From: Candidatus Odinarchaeota archaeon
GTDB lineage: Archaea > Asgardarchaeota > Odinarchaeia > Odinarchaeales > Odinarchaeaceae
DNA length: 32,000 bases
Assembly (NCBI GenBank): GCA_016839265.1
Contig: JAEOUO010000003.1
Coordinates: 30,001 to 62,000 of the forward strand
Reading direction: 5' to 3'
Under the pieces are notes generated by a model that saw only the letters and a list, made by a program, of their open reading frames with translations, did no database searches and was not told the DNA's origin. Position 1 is the first letter of the stretch; each line of letters opens with the position of its first letter. The position numbers were made by a program, and so were the translations under genes. Of the stretch, positions 7,103-22,339 are shown piece after piece.

Positions 7103-7501
7103 ATGCCTCAAGGAGTCCTCTTAATAGGTTGGAGTGTGGAGGAGGGGCCTGTGATAGAGGCGAAGTATCCGGATTGGCTTCCTGATTTAAGCAGGGAAGC
7201 GATTGCAATATATAATGCGCATAGCGCAGGTTGCAGAAAATGCGGAGCAATGTTTCTCAGCGCACCGAGTGTGAAAGTTGTAAGCTATTACACAGGGTTA
7301 CAGATAAATAAAGTTGTTTCAGTCCTATTGGATAGAGCTGAACGGCCTGATCCGTATATGGAGGCGCTTGAAGGAGTAATAAACGAGTATTTAAAAAATG
7401 GAATAGATTTTAAATATGAAATACTTCCTAAAATATATAGAAAACTTGAGAAAATCGGGAAAGCTCAAACCGCGGTTGATAAAATTATTAAATTATTCTA
7501 A
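7103..7501 (+). CDS. Small uDENN/longin-like Asgard protein
   Basis: Starts MPQGVLLIGWSVEEGPVIEAKYP, matching the 'W-x-x-x-x-GP-x-x-x-x-x-YP' signature of uDENN-like domains, and is the size of a single longin fold. Confidence 0.55.
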   Translation: MPQGVLLIGWSVEEGPVIEAKYPDWLPDLSREAIAIYNAHSAGCRKCGAMFLSAPSVKVVSYYTGLQINKVVSVLLDRAERPDPYMEALEGVINEYLKNGIDFKYEILPKIYRKLEKIGKAQTAVDKIIKLF

Positions 7502-7512
7502 GAGGTTTTTAT

Positions 7513-8241
7513 ATGAGTTTAACAACTGATAGTGTTCGCGTGAAAACCGGGATAAAAGGATTAGATGAGCTTATTAACGGCGGTTTTCCGACTGTAGGCA
7601 CATATCTTGTAACAGGAACCTCAGGAACAGGGAAAACACTTTTCGGAATCGAGTTTATTTATAAAGGTATAATGTTGTACGATGAACCGGGGATATTCAT
7701 TACAATGGATGAACCGCCAGACAAGCTTCGAGCGCATGTGAAAATGTCATTCGGTTGGAATCTTGAGAACCTTGAAAATGAAGGTAAACTAGCGATAGTA
7801 GACGCTATAAGCTCACGGGTTTCAGCTCCTTCAAACGAGAAATATATTCTCCGAAGAGGGGAAATAGATAGCTTACTATATAAAACAGCGAATATAATAG
7901 GAGAGTTAGGAGCTAAAAGAGTTGTACTAGATTCAATAGTATCTTTAGCATACCAGTATGATAGTATTTTCGATTTAAGAAGAGATATTCAAAGACTATG
8001 TTACGGGATAAGCCAGCTTAATTGCACGTTTCTCATAACCACTGAGGTTCCGAGCGGTTCAAACCGTTTAAGCAGATTCGACATAGAAGAGTTTCTAGTA
8101 GACGGAATAATCCTGTTAAAATTAGATAAAGAAAACGACGCTAACACTAGAAAACTGATGATCGTGAAAATGAGAGGAACAGATCATGATATGAAAGAGC
8201 ATATATTCAATATAACTAAAGATGGAATCATCTTAGAGTAA
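7513..8241 (+). CDS. Single-domain KaiC-like (RecA-superfamily) ATPase
   Basis: TGIKGLDELINGG, Walker A GTSGTGKT, Walker B RVVLDS, ITTE, EEFLVDGIILL and KMRGT. Confidence 0.9.
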   Translation: MSLTTDSVRVKTGIKGLDELINGGFPTVGTYLVTGTSGTGKTLFGIEFIYKGIMLYDEPGIFITMDEPPDKLRAHVKMSFGWNLENLENEGKLAIVDAISSRVSAPSNEKYILRRGEIDSLLYKTANIIGELGAKRVVLDSIVSLAYQYDSIFDLRRDIQRLCYGISQLNCTFLITTEVPSGSNRLSRFDIEEFLVDGIILLKLDKENDANTRKLMIVKMRGTDHDMKEHIFNITKDGIILE

Positions 8242-8260: not shown

Positions 8261-11200
8261 TTGGTTAAAAAACACAGCTTCACCATACTAATACTTGTTT
8301 TACTAATAGTACCACTCTTATTTCTACCAAGTGAAACCGTCAGTCAACCTATGGAAGGAGTCCCCTTCGAAGTTAAACCGGTTGGAATAGTTTTCAGTAA
8401 TTTAAGCTTAAGCTGGAAGCAAGTAAACTATAATAATTCTAATATTTCTGTGCCTGTTATAGTGCCATTCTACGTTGTTGAAAGCCATATTTACATGGCT
8501 GGTTTAAGATTCGAAATCATTCCGGAAGAGAATATAACAGGCAGCGAGATCTTAGAGAAATACTCGTGTATAATACTACCAGAGAACATGTACATGTCTA
8601 ATGCCAGCAGACTCGCATTACTAACCTATTATAAAGAATACTTGGAGAACGGTGGAAGCTTAATCGGATTCGGTTATATAGGTGTGAAAAATGAAAATGA
8701 CACCATTTTCCCCACGAATACAGATGTGTTCTGGAGAGAATTATTCAATATTAAAACCAACGGTTTTCTAAACGTAAACTACTCGATTACTACACTAGAA
8801 CACCCTCTTACAAAAGATTACGCGGAGAATACAACTATTCATAGTGGAGGCTTCGGCTTAGATAACATAACTGTGAACTCAACTTCAATAAATACACAAC
8901 CATTTCTTAAAGCGATAGATAATCAAACCGGCGATTTCATAACATATTGCGGATTCGCCTCTCAGATAGGAAACGGTAGAAGTGTGTTTATAAACGTTTA
9001 TGATCTCGGCTTGAACCCGTGGTTTGATAAAACCACGCTACTATTAAAAGCCTTACAGTGGTGTATCTTCCGCGACTATCCGGCTGTAGCCCTACAACCT
9101 ACACCTGGTAGGTTAACATGGATTTTCACCGTCGACCAGGATTGGTGTTTCGCCACAGCTAATACAACAGCTGCTTTAAGACGGCTGTTAACTTTAGCGG
9201 ATACATATTATTTCACATTCGGCTGGGCGATTATAAGCCAGGGACCTGTTAATCAATCCGATGAATACTATGGTTTCATAAATTGGAGTGCATGTAAACC
9301 ATTATTTCTAGAAGCATACAGTAAAGGAAACGATTTAGCGTCACACTCTGTAACCCATGTTTACTGGGATTTAACTCCTGTAAATGAAAGCAGGGTTTTA
9401 AATGAGTTAAATTTAAGCAAGTATCAGATTGAAGGAAACCTGAGTATACCAGTAACCGGTTTACAAGTGTGGGGACAAGGAATCTGGTTCAGCAGGTATA
9501 ATGCGTCAGTCTACCTGCCTCAAGTAGGATACCAGTATATAACAGAGTTAAGCGTAGAAGATTTCCCGTATTTAATGGGATGGGAGTTTTATTATTCAGG
9601 TGGAGAAAACATAGATTTTAATAAAACGGTTTTCGTTATATTCCGTCAATCTTATTCAGATCACAATTATTTCAGTCCAACTCAGATGAATCTTAACTGG
9701 AGTCAAGCGTGGGAGATAGAGAAAGCGAACTTTGATGACGCTTATTTAATCGGTAACGGTATGCCTTACACGCTTCTTTGGCATGATTACTCGATTGATA
9801 ATTCAAGTCGTCTACCGTTATTATATAATATTCTTGATTACGAACTCTGGCAGAGAAGAGACGTATACACTTGTACACCACGCGAGTATTATCATAGAAT
9901 TCAAGCACATGATAAAATCAAGTATAATGTAACATATTATTCGAATAATACTATTCAAATAATTTTAGACACCAGCAGCGTTGAAGATGAATACTTAGAG
10001 TATATTACCGGTCAAATGATAAGATTCGATAATCTCAGCTTATACGTGAAAAACGTGGAAATAGACGCTCAAAATTATCTCGCATACTCGAATAACACGG
10101 TGATACTGCCGAAACTTACTAAGGGTTCTCATACTGTAACAGTAACGTTAGACAGTCAACCGTCAAACCAGCCGCGTATTATCAGCTGTACGTTCGGCGG
10201 GCCTGTAGCCGCCTCTTACACCAGTGAAAAATTCACATTTAATTTTACAAGTCCTAACCAGAAAATTGGGCGAGTACTCTTAGAGTTAAATAATACACCG
10301 GTAACAATATTCGTGAATCGAACACTAACAGATAAATGGTATTATGAAGATAAAACACTCACATTAGCCTTAAACGCTTCAGGTAATACGCTTATAGATG
10401 TTTATTATTCACTCAGATTCACTGCTAACATAGCAGGTGTTGATAAAAGAGTATATTTTCCGAATGATCCTGTAATTGTAAACTATACTTTAAATAACAG
10501 TTATCCGTTCCCGTTAAATCTTAAAATTAAAGCAGTTATCTCAGCTTCGAATATAAGTTTAGGTGAAAGTGAAATAACTTTAACTATAGGCGCAGGTGAA
10601 ACATATACCAGTCATATAACTGTTCAACCTTACTCTACATGGCCTTCAGCTAATTTAAACGTTGAAATAAAGGTTATTTCAGGGTATGCTGTTTTATACG
10701 CTACTACCTCACTTGGAGGCGTATATGTTTACTGGTTTAACGGCGAGCTTTTAATCGCAACGCTAAGTCTCATAGCGGTTTTCACGGCAATAATCGCTTT
10801 CACAAACAAGTTTATCGCATCTGAAAAAATTAAGAAAATAGGCGGTTTCTTCACTAACGGTTTATTCGCAGCAAGCCCTATAATATTCAACTTAGGCTTC
10901 ATATTATTATTAGGCTATCACTACAGTCAAATATTAAACTTCACTGAAAGAGTTACGTTAACGTTAATTTACAGTATTACAATACCGGTGGCGTTCACAT
11001 TCTACGGTTTAGATTATTTAACAAGAAAATACACTTTAGAAGCAGCGTTATCAGAAGATTCAGCTCTTACAAAGAAATACGTTAAGCAGAGTCTTTTAAC
11101 AGGTTTTTATATTTCAGCAATAATTACAGGTGTACTTATATTATTCTCTGCAGTCAGCGGCGTAATCTCTCTAGAAATAGTTTTAACAGCTTTAACCTGT

Positions 11201-20103: not shown

Positions 20104-20132
20104 AAGAATATAAGACTAAACAAGGTGGTTTA

Positions 20133-20471
20133 ATGTCTGAAAGTCAACCCGTTAAAGAAGAAGAGGAGAAAACTAAAAAACAAACTGAAAAACGCGAAGT
20201 ACTCGTAGTTAACAGCGAGCAATTATCCGGATACAACGATAATCTTGTAACAGATCTAGCAAACTATTTAAACGAGAAATTGAAGATTAAAGCTAAAAGA
20301 GACGGCACAGACATCCTCTTAGACATAAAAAACATACAGCTAAGCAAAACAGATCTAAGACTCTACATTAAAAAATTTCTAAGAAAAAACAACATCAATA
20401 ATATTTTCAAAATAATCTCACCTGCAGCTACAGGAAACAGTCTACTACTAGCTAAACAGAAAGAGATCTGA
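20133..20471 (+). CDS. rpl22e: Ribosomal protein eL22 (RPL22e) homolog
   Basis: LANYLNEKLKI...LSKTDLRLYIKKFLRKNNINNIFKIIS parallels eukaryotic eL22 'FLQERIKV...[27 protein letters not shown]'; GGTG SD upstream. Confidence 0.75.
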   Translation: MSESQPVKEEEEKTKKQTEKREVLVVNSEQLSGYNDNLVTDLANYLNEKLKIKAKRDGTDILLDIKNIQLSKTDLRLYIKKFLRKNNINNIFKIISPAATGNSLLLAKQKEI

Positions 20472-20511
20472 AAACAGTTCACAATATTTTAATAAACCGT
20501 GGAAAATAGAT

Positions 20512-21484
20512 ATGAGTATGCAGTATACTAACATAGCTTGTAAAGCTTTGATAGCTGCGCTTCTTGAAGTAGCCGGCTGGCCGAAACCTTGAATTAAAAC
20601 AAGGCGGCATACCCGGCAACATACATCGGACAGCTGATTACCTGAAAACACGATATGAGCATTACATAATAGGGTACATTCCTGTTTACGATTATTTTAT
20701 TAAAACCGTTAAAAAAACCAGGTTTCTAACACTTAGAAGAAAAGATTACAATAGTCTGCAATTAGGTAAACTAATCTATCTGTCAGCTAAAAAATCCTAT
20801 AACTGGCAAAGCGGGGGAAACATAAACTTAGGCGCATTAACCCTTCTGATACCTTTAATAGCCGCGTATACAGCATCAGAAGTTGAAAATATTAAAGACC
20901 AAGATAAGCTGAGAGAAAAACTACAAGAAATCTTGAAATCAACCACCGTAGAAGACGCTGTAAACTTTTATAAAACAGTGAACATAGTTAAACCAGGCGG
21001 TTTAAGTGAAACCAGCGAATACGATATAACTAAAAAATCTTTCCCGGAGAGAATCCGCCGCGACAGAAAAACATTATATGATCTTTTCAAAATAAGCGCT
21101 GAATGGGATAGCATATCAAAAGAATGGGTTACAGGATATCAAATCACATACACTATAGGTGAACCAACATTTACATCAACATTACATGAATCAAAAGACA
21201 TTAACACAGCTACAGTCCACACATTCCTAAAAATACTAAGCATGATACCAGACAGTTTAATTAAACGAAAAACAAATGAAAAAAAAGCGAGAGAAATCAG
21301 CTCTAAAGCACAGCAAGCCTTAAAACTTGGAGGCTTAAACACACCGGAAGGCAGAGAATACATAAAAAGATTCGACAGTGAACTTCAAAAAAGTAAAGGC
21401 TTGTTAAACCCAGGCAGCTCAGCTGATCTAACAGCAGCTTCAATAATGGCGGCGCTAAATAAAAAAGAACCACCATTATACTAA
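20512..21484 (+). CDS. citG: Archaeal CitG-family protein (triphosphoribosyl-dephospho-CoA synthase-like), split into two exons: 20512-20585 and 20611-21484, 315 aa after splicing
   Basis: Exon 1 encodes MSMQYTNIACKALIAALLEVAGWP. Exon 2 continues (K)PGNIHRTADY...RYEHY...GGNINLGALTLLIPL...STTVEDAVNFY...NPGSSADLTAA. Removing 20586-20610 joins them in frame. Confidence 0.85.
20586..20610 (+). other. 25-nt bulge-helix-bulge (BHB) intron in the citG-like mRNA
   Basis: Central 4-bp helix GCCG(20580-83)/CGGC(20605-08), 3-nt bulges AAA(20584-86) and ATA(20609-11), inner stem CCTTG/CAAGG with an 8-nt loop, and outer exon-exon stem GCCGG-(CT)-G/C-CCGGC. Confidence 0.85.
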
Positions 21485-21489
21485 CCTTA

Positions 21490-21525
21490 AAAAACAGCTT
21501 TAACAAAAATAAAAAATAAAAGTAT
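21490..21525 (-). terminator. Oligo-T terminator-like tract after the SDR gene (convergent with citG)
   Basis: Minus strand reads CTTTTATTTTTTATTTTTGTTAAAGCTGTTTTTT downstream of the stop at 21539. Confidence 0.4.
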
Positions 21526-21538
21526 AGAGAAATCACTT

Positions 21539-22339
21539 CTAAGATTTTTTAAACGGGTTCTCTCCCTTAGCTGGAAGATGATCTTTAACCATACCGCCGC
21601 GAGCTGTCTCCCCGTTATCCAGTATTAAACATGTTCCAACCGCGTGACTAGACTCATCACTGGCTAAAAATAACGCTCCATAAGCCATTTCTAAAGGTGA
21701 CGCCAGCTTACCCATATCCTCCCATTCTTTCTCAGGATCCGCTGAAGCGGCTACAGCTTTTCTAAGAAGCGGAGTATCAACATAGCCTGGGCATAAAGCG
21801 TTTATACGAATATTATACTTAGCATAATCTATTGCCATCGCCTTAGTCAACATAACCACACCGCCTTTAGACGCGTGGTAAGCCTCCCAGCCTGGTTGAG
21901 CTACAAAACCCCAGTTAGAAGCTGTGTTAACAATTACACCGCCACCCTGATTCTTCATAACAGGTATCACCGCCTTAGAACAATAGAATACACTAGATAA
22001 GTTAACCGCTAACACCTTATTCCATAAATCGACACTAGTAGACTCAGCGTCACCTACAGGGCCTATACCCGCATTATTATGTAAAATATCAACCCGCCCG
22101 TAAGTTTTAACAGCGAAATCTATAAGATTTTTACAATCCTCCCATTTAGACACGTCTGTTTTACAGAAAAACGCCTCCCCGCCTGCTTTCTTAATTTCTT
22201 CAACCGTCTTCAAAGCATCAACCTCATTAACGTCCCCTATAATTATTTTAGCACCCTCCTTAGCGAATAACTTCGCTGTTGCAGCTCCAATACCTGTAGC
22301 CGCCCCGGTTATAACAGCGATTTTACCTTTAAGTCTCAT
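21539..22339 (-). CDS. Classical short-chain dehydrogenase/reductase
   Basis: TGAATGIG, NNAG, NTAS, YHASK (YxxxK) and NALCPGYVDT. Confidence 0.93.
   Translation of the reverse strand: MRLKGKIAVITGAATGIGAATAKLFAKEGAKIIIGDVNEVDALKTVEEIKKAGGEAFFCKTDVSKWEDCKNLIDFAVKTYGRVDILHNNAGIGPVGDAESTSVDLWNKVLAVNLSSVFYCSKAVIPVMKNQGGGVIVNTASNWGFVAQPGWEAYHASKGGVVMLTKAMAIDYAKYNIRINALCPGYVDTPLLRKAVAASADPEKEWEDMGKLASPLEMAYGALFLASDESSHAVGTCLILDNGETARGGMVKDHLPAKGENPFKKS

Follow-up and report, generated by a model that had tools for sequence, protein, structure and literature searches.

The window analysed here is a 32,000-nucleotide stretch of the genome of an archaeon of the class Odinarchaeia (1.35 Mb in 6 contigs, 97% complete, 36% G+C). 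It carries on its forward strand a gene of the CitG family, called citG-like below, whose reading frame is interrupted shortly after its start. The frame opened by the ATG at 20512 (a second in-frame ATG lies at 20518) runs from M-S-M-Q-Y-T-N to L-L-E-V-A-G-W-P-K-P (the residues between are in Table 1) and then meets a TGA at 20590-92. The family sequence resumes in another frame: the stop-to-stop open reading frame (ORF) 20573..21484 encodes PGNIHRTADY... from 20612 onwards, over 290 codons, and ends with the TAA at 21482-84. This break and change of frame had been pointed out in a preliminary description of the stretch and are confirmed in the sequence. The same description proposed that 25 nucleotides at the break form an intron of the bulge-helix-bulge (BHB) type, removed from the pre-mRNA by the archaeal tRNA-splicing endonuclease EndA, and it is this proposal that we weigh here.

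The part downstream of the break matches the Pfam CitG profile (PF01874, E 5.7e-58, 197 bits, above the cut-off of 27) over profile positions 18-283 of 284; since the match starts only at position 18, the N-terminus of the family is missing from this ORF. The peptide read from the upstream ATG codons, for its part, aligns with LLEVSGxPK, the N-terminal motif of CitG-family proteins that have no intron. The spliced product would comprise 315 aa if translated from ATG 20512 or 313 aa from ATG 20518, and the unspliced RNA encodes only a peptide of 26 or 24 residues. We take the second ATG to be probably the true start, because ATA replaces the first ATG in one orthologue (L116). An A/T-rich, TATA-like box upstream of the start codon has counterparts at the same distance in genus-level orthologues (TTTATAAA/TTTAATAAA), and its spacing would suit an mRNA with no leader or almost none, beginning near ATG 20518.

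One alternative is that the gene works without this upstream segment, either as a short protein started within exon 2 or with the 26-residue peptide and the exon-2 product as separate molecules. Public gene calls lend it some support: Odinarchaeia CitG-family entries are N-terminally truncated (P0001, 272 aa; P0003, 284 aa; P0031, 284 aa; P0005, 243 aa; P0004, 188 aa) and overall span 168-284 aa vs about 315 for the spliced product. However, the earliest ATG, GTG or TTG in the exon-2 frame of the window is a TTG at 20933, 107 codons past the junction, and those 107 codons are conserved and match the CitG profile from position 18. Moreover, the exon-1 peptide is conserved at the positions that the family conserves and completes its most conserved motif, LLEVxGxPK-PGNxH, and exon 1 has its own start codon and TATA-like box. 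We therefore consider a gene without exon 1 very improbable; gene callers do not see the citG-like intron.

Table 1. Features of the citG-like gene and of its predicted intron (window positions).
Feature	Position	Strand	Remarks
TATA-like box, A/T-rich, ATATTTTAATAAA	20484..20496	+	upstream of the start codon; read from the sequence
Exon 1 (predicted)	20512..20585	+	M(SM)QYTNIACKALIAALLEVAGWP and the first two bases of the Lys codon
Outer (exonic) helix h, 5' strand GCCGG(CU)G	20572..20579	+	sequence and fold
Central 4-bp helix H, 5' (exonic) strand GCCG	20580..20583	+	formed by the Trp and Pro codons
5' splice-site bulge AAA	20584..20586	+	predicted cut 20585/20586
Predicted intron, 25 nt, ACCUUGAAUUAAAACAAGGCGGCAU	20586..20610	+	delimited by the BHB cut rule; contains the in-frame UGA 20590-92
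Inner helix h', CCUUG (20587-91)/CAAGG (20600-04), loop AAUUAAAA	20587..20604	+	sequence and fold
Central helix H, 3' (intronic) strand CGGC	20605..20608	+	pairs with GCCG
3' splice-site bulge AUA	20609..20611	+	predicted cut 20610/20611
Exon 2 (predicted)	20611..21484	+	third base of the Lys codon, PGNIHRTADY... (290 codons), TAA 21482-84; PF01874 match
Outer helix h, 3' strand CCCGGC	20612..20617	+	Pro and Gly codons of exon 2

Around the break, the order of elements from the outer helix inward is a 3'-strand bulge, a 4-bp helix, a 5'-strand bulge and an inner helix, which is the archaeal BHB arrangement (Table 1). Cleavage between the second and third residues of each bulge is the rule given for cbf5 introns (PMC2738675). 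Applied to the window, this rule takes out exactly 20586-20610 (25 nt), as had been claimed, and leaves UGG CCG AA^A CCC GGC (here and below the caret marks the junction), that is, ...UGGCCGAA joined to ACCCGGCAAC.... The rule leaves nothing to adjust in this case. The result is W-P-K-P-G-N within an intact 315-aa protein, whose junction, LLEVAGWPK^PGNIHR, needs no gap when aligned with 17 homologues that lack the intron, drawn from other Asgard classes, Bathyarchaeia, Nitrososphaeria, Methanomethylicia, Thermofilaceae, Altiarchaeota and Halobacteria; the shared pattern is LLEV(A/S)GWPK^PGN(I/V)HR. Only two deletions restore a CitG-family protein, and they are equivalent. The tryptic peptide predicted across the WPK^PGN junction is ALIAALLEVAGWPKPGNIHR; trypsin does not cleave Lys-Pro bonds.

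Folded freely, the region 20572-20617 reaches -22.9 kcal/mol (z = -3.57), and none of 200 shuffled sequences does as well. A loose BHB motif occurs 46,276 times in the genome, or 1.4e-4 per (position, length) pair, and motifs as good as the citG-like one 218 times, or 6.7e-7 per pair; the probability that the BHB at the break arose by chance is low.

Much of the argument comes from orthologues. The closest database protein to the citG-like product is from Candidatus Odinarchaeum yellowstonii. A citG-like gene is found in 5 of 7 Odinarchaeia species genomes, with the insert at the identical site in all five, and the insert is also present in three more Odinarchaeia contigs, all reached via N-terminally truncated database proteins. 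The resulting set of eight consists of the window gene and seven relatives (five sequences from species genomes and three from the further contigs). The insert interrupts the same codon in every one of them, with lengths of 25 (window), 25, 27, 24, 26, 27, 19 and 19 nt, or 1, 1, 0, 0, 2, 0, 1 and 1 modulo 3, and all eight unspliced readings meet a stop codon. As these lengths span all residues modulo 3, a fixed frameshift cannot rescue the gene, and +1/-1 frameshifting is thereby ruled out. Read-through of the stop is ruled out as well, since it would add 6-9 residues within the most conserved motif of the family (LLEVxGxPK-PGNxH), which is where the junction falls. Outside the class the insert is absent from all of the more than 40 sequences compared, among them 25 orthologues of other Asgard families, the orthologues read in other archaeal genomes and 9 metagenomic ones. 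A metagenome scan added one Odinarchaeia copy (L100), which ends exactly at the junction. These distributions suggest that the intron was probably gained once, in the stem or ancestor of Odinarchaeia, and then kept while its hairpin drifted.

Exon 2 is open in every copy, without internal stops, at an identity of 76-77% within the genus, about 51-54% in L115 and L117 and 44% in the second genus. Given this conservation and the lack of a start for 107 codons, we conclude that the gene is functional and needs exon 1. The opposite possibility is a shared inactivating insertion, whether a pseudogene inherited by all Odinarchaeia or an artefact of assembly. It would account for the stop or frameshift that formally breaks every Odinarchaeia copy, and it fits with the 2 of 7 Odinarchaeia genomes (93% and 82% complete) in which no citG-like match was found. 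On the other hand, the insert appears in eight assemblies made independently, among them a closed chromosome of 1.4 Mb, which excludes an assembly artefact. Both exons keep an open frame and stay conserved in lineages as far apart as 44% protein identity, and the orthologues show no further stops or frameshifts. A specific RNA structure is kept as the length of the insert changes, which neutral decay would not do. An inactivated gene is thus an extremely improbable explanation.

At the borders of the insert, GCCG-AAA on the 5' side and CGG(C/U)-A(A/U)A-CC on the 3' side are kept in all eight sequences; the hairpin between them varies in length and sequence. The 5' bulge AAA is invariant, and the 3' bulge is AUA in the window and AAA in the other seven. 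The central helix is 100% paired in 8/8, its first pair being G-C in four sequences and G.U in four (3' strand CGGC or CGGU). In the inner helix, too, 100% of cells are paired; it spans 5 bp in the window gene and between 2 and 7 bp in its orthologues, and two of its pairs have undergone compensatory changes on both sides (C-G to U-A; G-C to A-U). Three pairs of the outer helix, G20579-C20612, G20576-C20613 and C20574-G20615, are kept throughout (the last as U.G in two sequences), and its other pairs are not. The covariation score is 0.190 (eight sequences, model-guided alignment), which none of 500 shuffles reaches, and a shift of the 3' partners by 1-3 columns brings pairing down from 86% to 22-42%. 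A further trace lies in codon choice: the central helix takes part of its exonic strand from a Pro codon, and intron-bearing genes use CCG there in 8/8 cases vs 4/24 for intron-less ones, a preference indicating that synonymous sites are constrained.

Several observations weigh against a spliced intron of this form and need to be considered together. First, the minimum-free-energy structure pairs part of the 3' bulge (G20579-U20610, U20578-A20611), so that the strict 3-nt bulge on this side is a model, one of several near-equivalent local structures. Second, the outer helix of the window is imperfect (1 bp, a 2-nt bulge, 5 bp), and across the eight orthologues only 67% of its cells are paired. 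With an imperfect outer helix and a partly paired 3' bulge, the motif fits a relaxed form better than a strict hBHBh' (outer helix, central helix with its two bulges, inner helix); all the elements named in the preliminary description lie at the coordinates it gave. Most cbf5 introns likewise have a relaxed motif, with which the citG-like outer helix agrees (PMC2738675). Third, the covariation comes from eight related sequences in an alignment fitted to the structure; in the first five orthologues alone it was not significant (96/500 shuffles), and it became clear only with three further divergent sequences. Fourth, this A/T-rich genome is full of loose BHB motifs. When its ORF breaks were scanned for such motifs, as the preliminary description had suggested, an open frame on both sides and a broken unspliced frame were required, and correct-phase hits were no more numerous than those of a wrong-phase control (523 vs 524.5; 59 vs 58; 31 vs 28.5). 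An ORF-only scan of this kind has no power and is not used as support here; the case rests on homology and orthologues. Finally, a ribosome jumping from AAA to AAA (7/8 sequences) or from CCU to CCC would make a protein identical to the spliced one.

This last point belongs to translational bypassing of the kind found in T4 gene 60 or the mitochondrial 'byp' elements, in which take-off would occur at AAA or CCU, the hairpin would be skipped and landing would take place on AAA or CCN before exon 2. Features expected of such a site are indeed present, with a stop soon after the take-off codon in 6/8 sequences (KP* or KS*), a hairpin 3' of that codon and AAA directly before the exon-2 CCN in 7/8. 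The codons themselves, however, do not fit: the pairs in the window would be AAA to AUA or CCU to CCC, so that the landing triplet for AAA is AUA, not AAA; a CCN-to-CCN jump fails in L115 and L117, where the insert begins UCU; and the CCN pair is mismatched in L004 (CCG to CCU) and L005 (CCU to CCG), both of which are without a nearby stop. Neither codon pair is thus matched in all eight orthologues. Under bypassing, the invariant CGGY strand with its pairing to GCCG and the exact 4-bp spacing of the 3-nt bulges would serve no purpose, and two further interrupted genes of the same genome, gatA and kae1, have inserts that lack matched take-off and landing codons yet follow the BHB rule. We know of no case of bypassing in Archaea, and we give it a very small probability for the citG-like gene.

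The genome encodes enzymes suited to the removal of a BHB intron. Two EndA paralogues are present: an alpha of 188 aa with the catalytic Y/H/K, whose alignment with the Aeropyrum pernix alpha subunit (3P1Z_B) is nearly gap-free, also across the loop around Lys44, and a beta of 193 aa without the catalytic His, which matches the N-terminal half of fused enzymes and beta-subunit models. Judged by these sequences, the endonuclease is an (alpha-beta)2 heterotetramer, with predicted activity. Asgard archaea have an (alpha-beta)2 EndA with an L1 loop that gives broad specificity (PMC5829648), and this architecture has been linked to the recognition of relaxed motifs outside tRNA (PMC2738675). The ligase RtcB is encoded as well (E 3.3e-177; contig C1, 769620-770927). 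Most of the 35 tRNA genes detected by ARAGORN contain introns, and such heavy interruption implies an active and permissive BHB splicing system. Some of the calls are odd (a tRNA-Stop, a 479-nt intron, misplaced anticodons), which points to tRNA genes with several introns, beyond what the program can resolve.

Taken together, we consider it very probable that 20586-20610 is a genuine BHB intron, spliced by EndA and RtcB, in the pre-mRNA of a CitG-family (PF01874) protein. The anatomy of the insert, the exact restoration of the junction, the conservation and covariation among orthologues and the enzyme genes are all there to be read in the genomes, and from them we infer cleavage and ligation. 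In the proposed mechanism, folding of the transcript would bring the Trp-Pro codons (GCCG) to pair with the insert's 3' end (CGGC). Two 3-nt bulges would result, one on each strand and separated by 4 bp, with the intronic hairpin on one side and a weak exonic helix on the other. The (alpha-beta)2 tRNA-splicing endonuclease would then cut after the second nucleotide of each bulge, and RtcB would join the exons to ...UGG CCG AA^A CCC GGC.... Only the spliced mRNA would encode the full 313/315-aa protein with an intact LLEVxGWPK-PGNxHR motif. The core of the preliminary description, a spliced protein-coding intron in an Asgard archaeon and in a metabolic gene other than cbf5, has comparative support from all eight orthologues and from the enzyme genes. 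The cbf5 gene of the same genome is uninterrupted (an open frame of 331 aa, no stops). Its additional suggestion of a post-transcriptional switch finds no support in the evidence presented here, and regulation through splicing is speculation.

That other apparent gene breaks in the genome might be split by introns, as had also been suggested, agrees with gatA and kae1, which are interrupted in the same manner. In gatA (amidase, PF01425), a 28-nt insert on contig C1 of the genome (C1:628076-628103, +) separates profile positions 1-153 from 154-445. Its BHB has a GCGG/CUGU central helix, 3-nt bulges UAA and AAG and an 8-bp hairpin, and the BHB cut rule restores the amidase signature GSDTGG^SVRQPASFCG. 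In kae1/tsaD, a single-copy gene, the insert is 30 nt long, stays in frame and contains two TAA stops (C1:685347-685376, -). Its BHB combines an outer helix of 8 bp, an inner stem of 7 bp and a GGGU/GCUU central helix with three G.U pairs; here the cut rule restores GPGL^GPCL. The motif scan returned two further candidates. One is a 29-nt insert (C1:741919-741947, -) whose removal gives GCTFRCAY^CQNYD, with the radical-SAM CxxxCxxC motif. The other, of 30 nt (C1:515580-515609, +), has a strict BHB (GGGG/CUCC, 10-bp inner and 9-bp outer helices) and lies in a small gene of the adenosine-kinase family.

The citG-like, gatA and kae1 introns are all located in conserved motifs rich in Gly and Pro (WPK^PG, GG^S and GL^GP). 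In an A/T-rich genome, GGN and CCN codons supply G+C-rich exonic strands for the BHB, and this may constrain where introns insert or persist. We lean towards a wider reading, in which mRNA introns spliced by the endonuclease would form a genome-wide set in Odinarchaeia, with the citG-like intron among them; at least the citG-like gene, gatA and kae1 are members verified by homology, and the radical-SAM and adenosine-kinase-family genes are candidates from the motif scan. As part of the same reading, which we hold with moderate confidence, splicing of mRNA by the tRNA machinery would be obligatory for several genes, some of them essential, and introns would sit preferentially in motifs made of Gly and Pro codons.

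As for the identity of the protein, the NCBIfam equivalogs CitG (TIGR03125) and MdcB (TIGR03132) score 35-45 bits against cut-offs of 272-477, and match the C-terminal third only. With scores so far below the cut-offs, we speak of a CitG-family protein and not of a demonstrated CitG. The four neighbouring genes checked encode a B12-binding radical-SAM protein, an L22e-like protein, a short-chain dehydrogenase and a deacetylase, and no citrate-lyase or malonate-decarboxylase gene is among them. The gene directly upstream (20130-20468, +) is the Lys/Glu-rich one with a weak match to the eukaryotic-type ribosomal protein L22e (PF01776, E 8.8e-6); an L22e-like neighbour is also present beside the orthologue L116. 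No known RNA family was found by Rfam at 20300-20900 on either strand, and no tRNA gene by ARAGORN in the window. Three other combinations of a BHB with ORFs in the window were rejected. The one at 7495-7523, between two tandem genes and containing the ATG of the downstream gene, is attributed to chance, as is the one at 9597-9624. The third, at 21511-21542 (-), is an 8-bp hairpin between convergent genes, just past the end of the short-chain dehydrogenase gene (21539-22339, -). As that gene is already complete, the hairpin is probably a terminator-like element.

Our findings have implications for how genomes of this class are read. Since gene callers truncate or split intron-bearing genes, metabolic reconstructions and pseudogene counts for Odinarchaeia genomes are biased. 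The citG-like intron would also extend EndA splicing of coding sequences to a new gene family and to Asgard archaea, the prokaryotic lineage nearest to eukaryotes, with the parallel inserts in gatA and kae1 as further indications. If the genome-wide reading is true, tRNA-type splicing of mRNA is obligatory for several genes in the archaea closest to eukaryotes. The origin, spread and tolerance of introns in protein genes without a spliceosome become directly testable.

The preliminary description knew of no earlier report, and we likewise found no published description of protein-coding BHB introns in Asgard archaea or Odinarchaeia, in a search in which subscription journals were mostly outside coverage. 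Papers on Asgard tRNA introns (PMC11291895, bioRxiv 10.64898/2026.10.13.758758) and the paper on the closed Odinarchaeum genome make no mention of introns in protein genes. As far as the literature found goes, BHB introns within coding sequences are documented for cbf5 of Crenarchaeota only, and introns in other protein genes were predicted, not confirmed, at the time of the 2009 cbf5 paper (PMC2738675).

The closest known system is therefore the cbf5 pre-mRNA intron of Desulfurococcales and Sulfolobales (Yokobori 2009, PMC2738675). Like the citG-like intron, it is small, interrupts the coding sequence at a conserved motif for catalysis or binding, has a (relaxed) BHB at its borders and is cut between the second and third bulge residues, in a host whose (alpha-beta)2 endonuclease has relaxed specificity. 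In both cases the gene is mis-annotated by gene callers, and the intron is restricted to a clade, which implies a gain within the lineage. The differences are that cbf5 encodes an RNA pseudouridine synthase rather than a CitG-family enzyme, that its hosts belong to the Thermoproteota rather than to the Asgard class Odinarchaeia, and that several other genes (gatA, kae1 and more) carry inserts in the genome studied here; splicing has been demonstrated experimentally for cbf5 and is deduced for the citG-like gene. The cbf5 intron of these crenarchaeal orders is reportedly also the subject of work by Watanabe in 2002 and Yoshinari in 2006.

Two other archaeal systems share parts of this picture. 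The HVO_1309 mRNA of Haloferax volcanii has a BHB intron in its 5' untranslated region, validated in vivo and in vitro (Schwarz et al. 2020, PMC7714728). As in the citG-like case, the substrate of the archaeal splicing endonuclease is an mRNA and not a tRNA or rRNA; in contrast to it, the intron lies in an untranslated leader and leaves the frame uninterrupted, and the host EndA is of a different type. The non-canonical introns of Asgard archaea and Thermoproteales (PMC11291895, bioRxiv 10.64898/2026.10.13.758758) have the motif and the enzymes in common with the citG-like intron but are located in tRNA genes.

A more distant parallel comes from eukaryotes. There, IRE1 and RtcB carry out the unconventional splicing of HAC1/XBP1 mRNA. 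In this process a structure-recognising endonuclease acts together with a tRNA-type ligase (PMC8718801). IRE1 is not an EndA/TSEN enzyme, it recognises a twin stem-loop motif, and the reaction is regulated by stress, all of which sets it apart from the citG-like intron. What the two would have in common is the action on mRNA of a structure-recognising endonuclease followed by a tRNA-type ligase, and the removal of a short intron that alters the reading frame.

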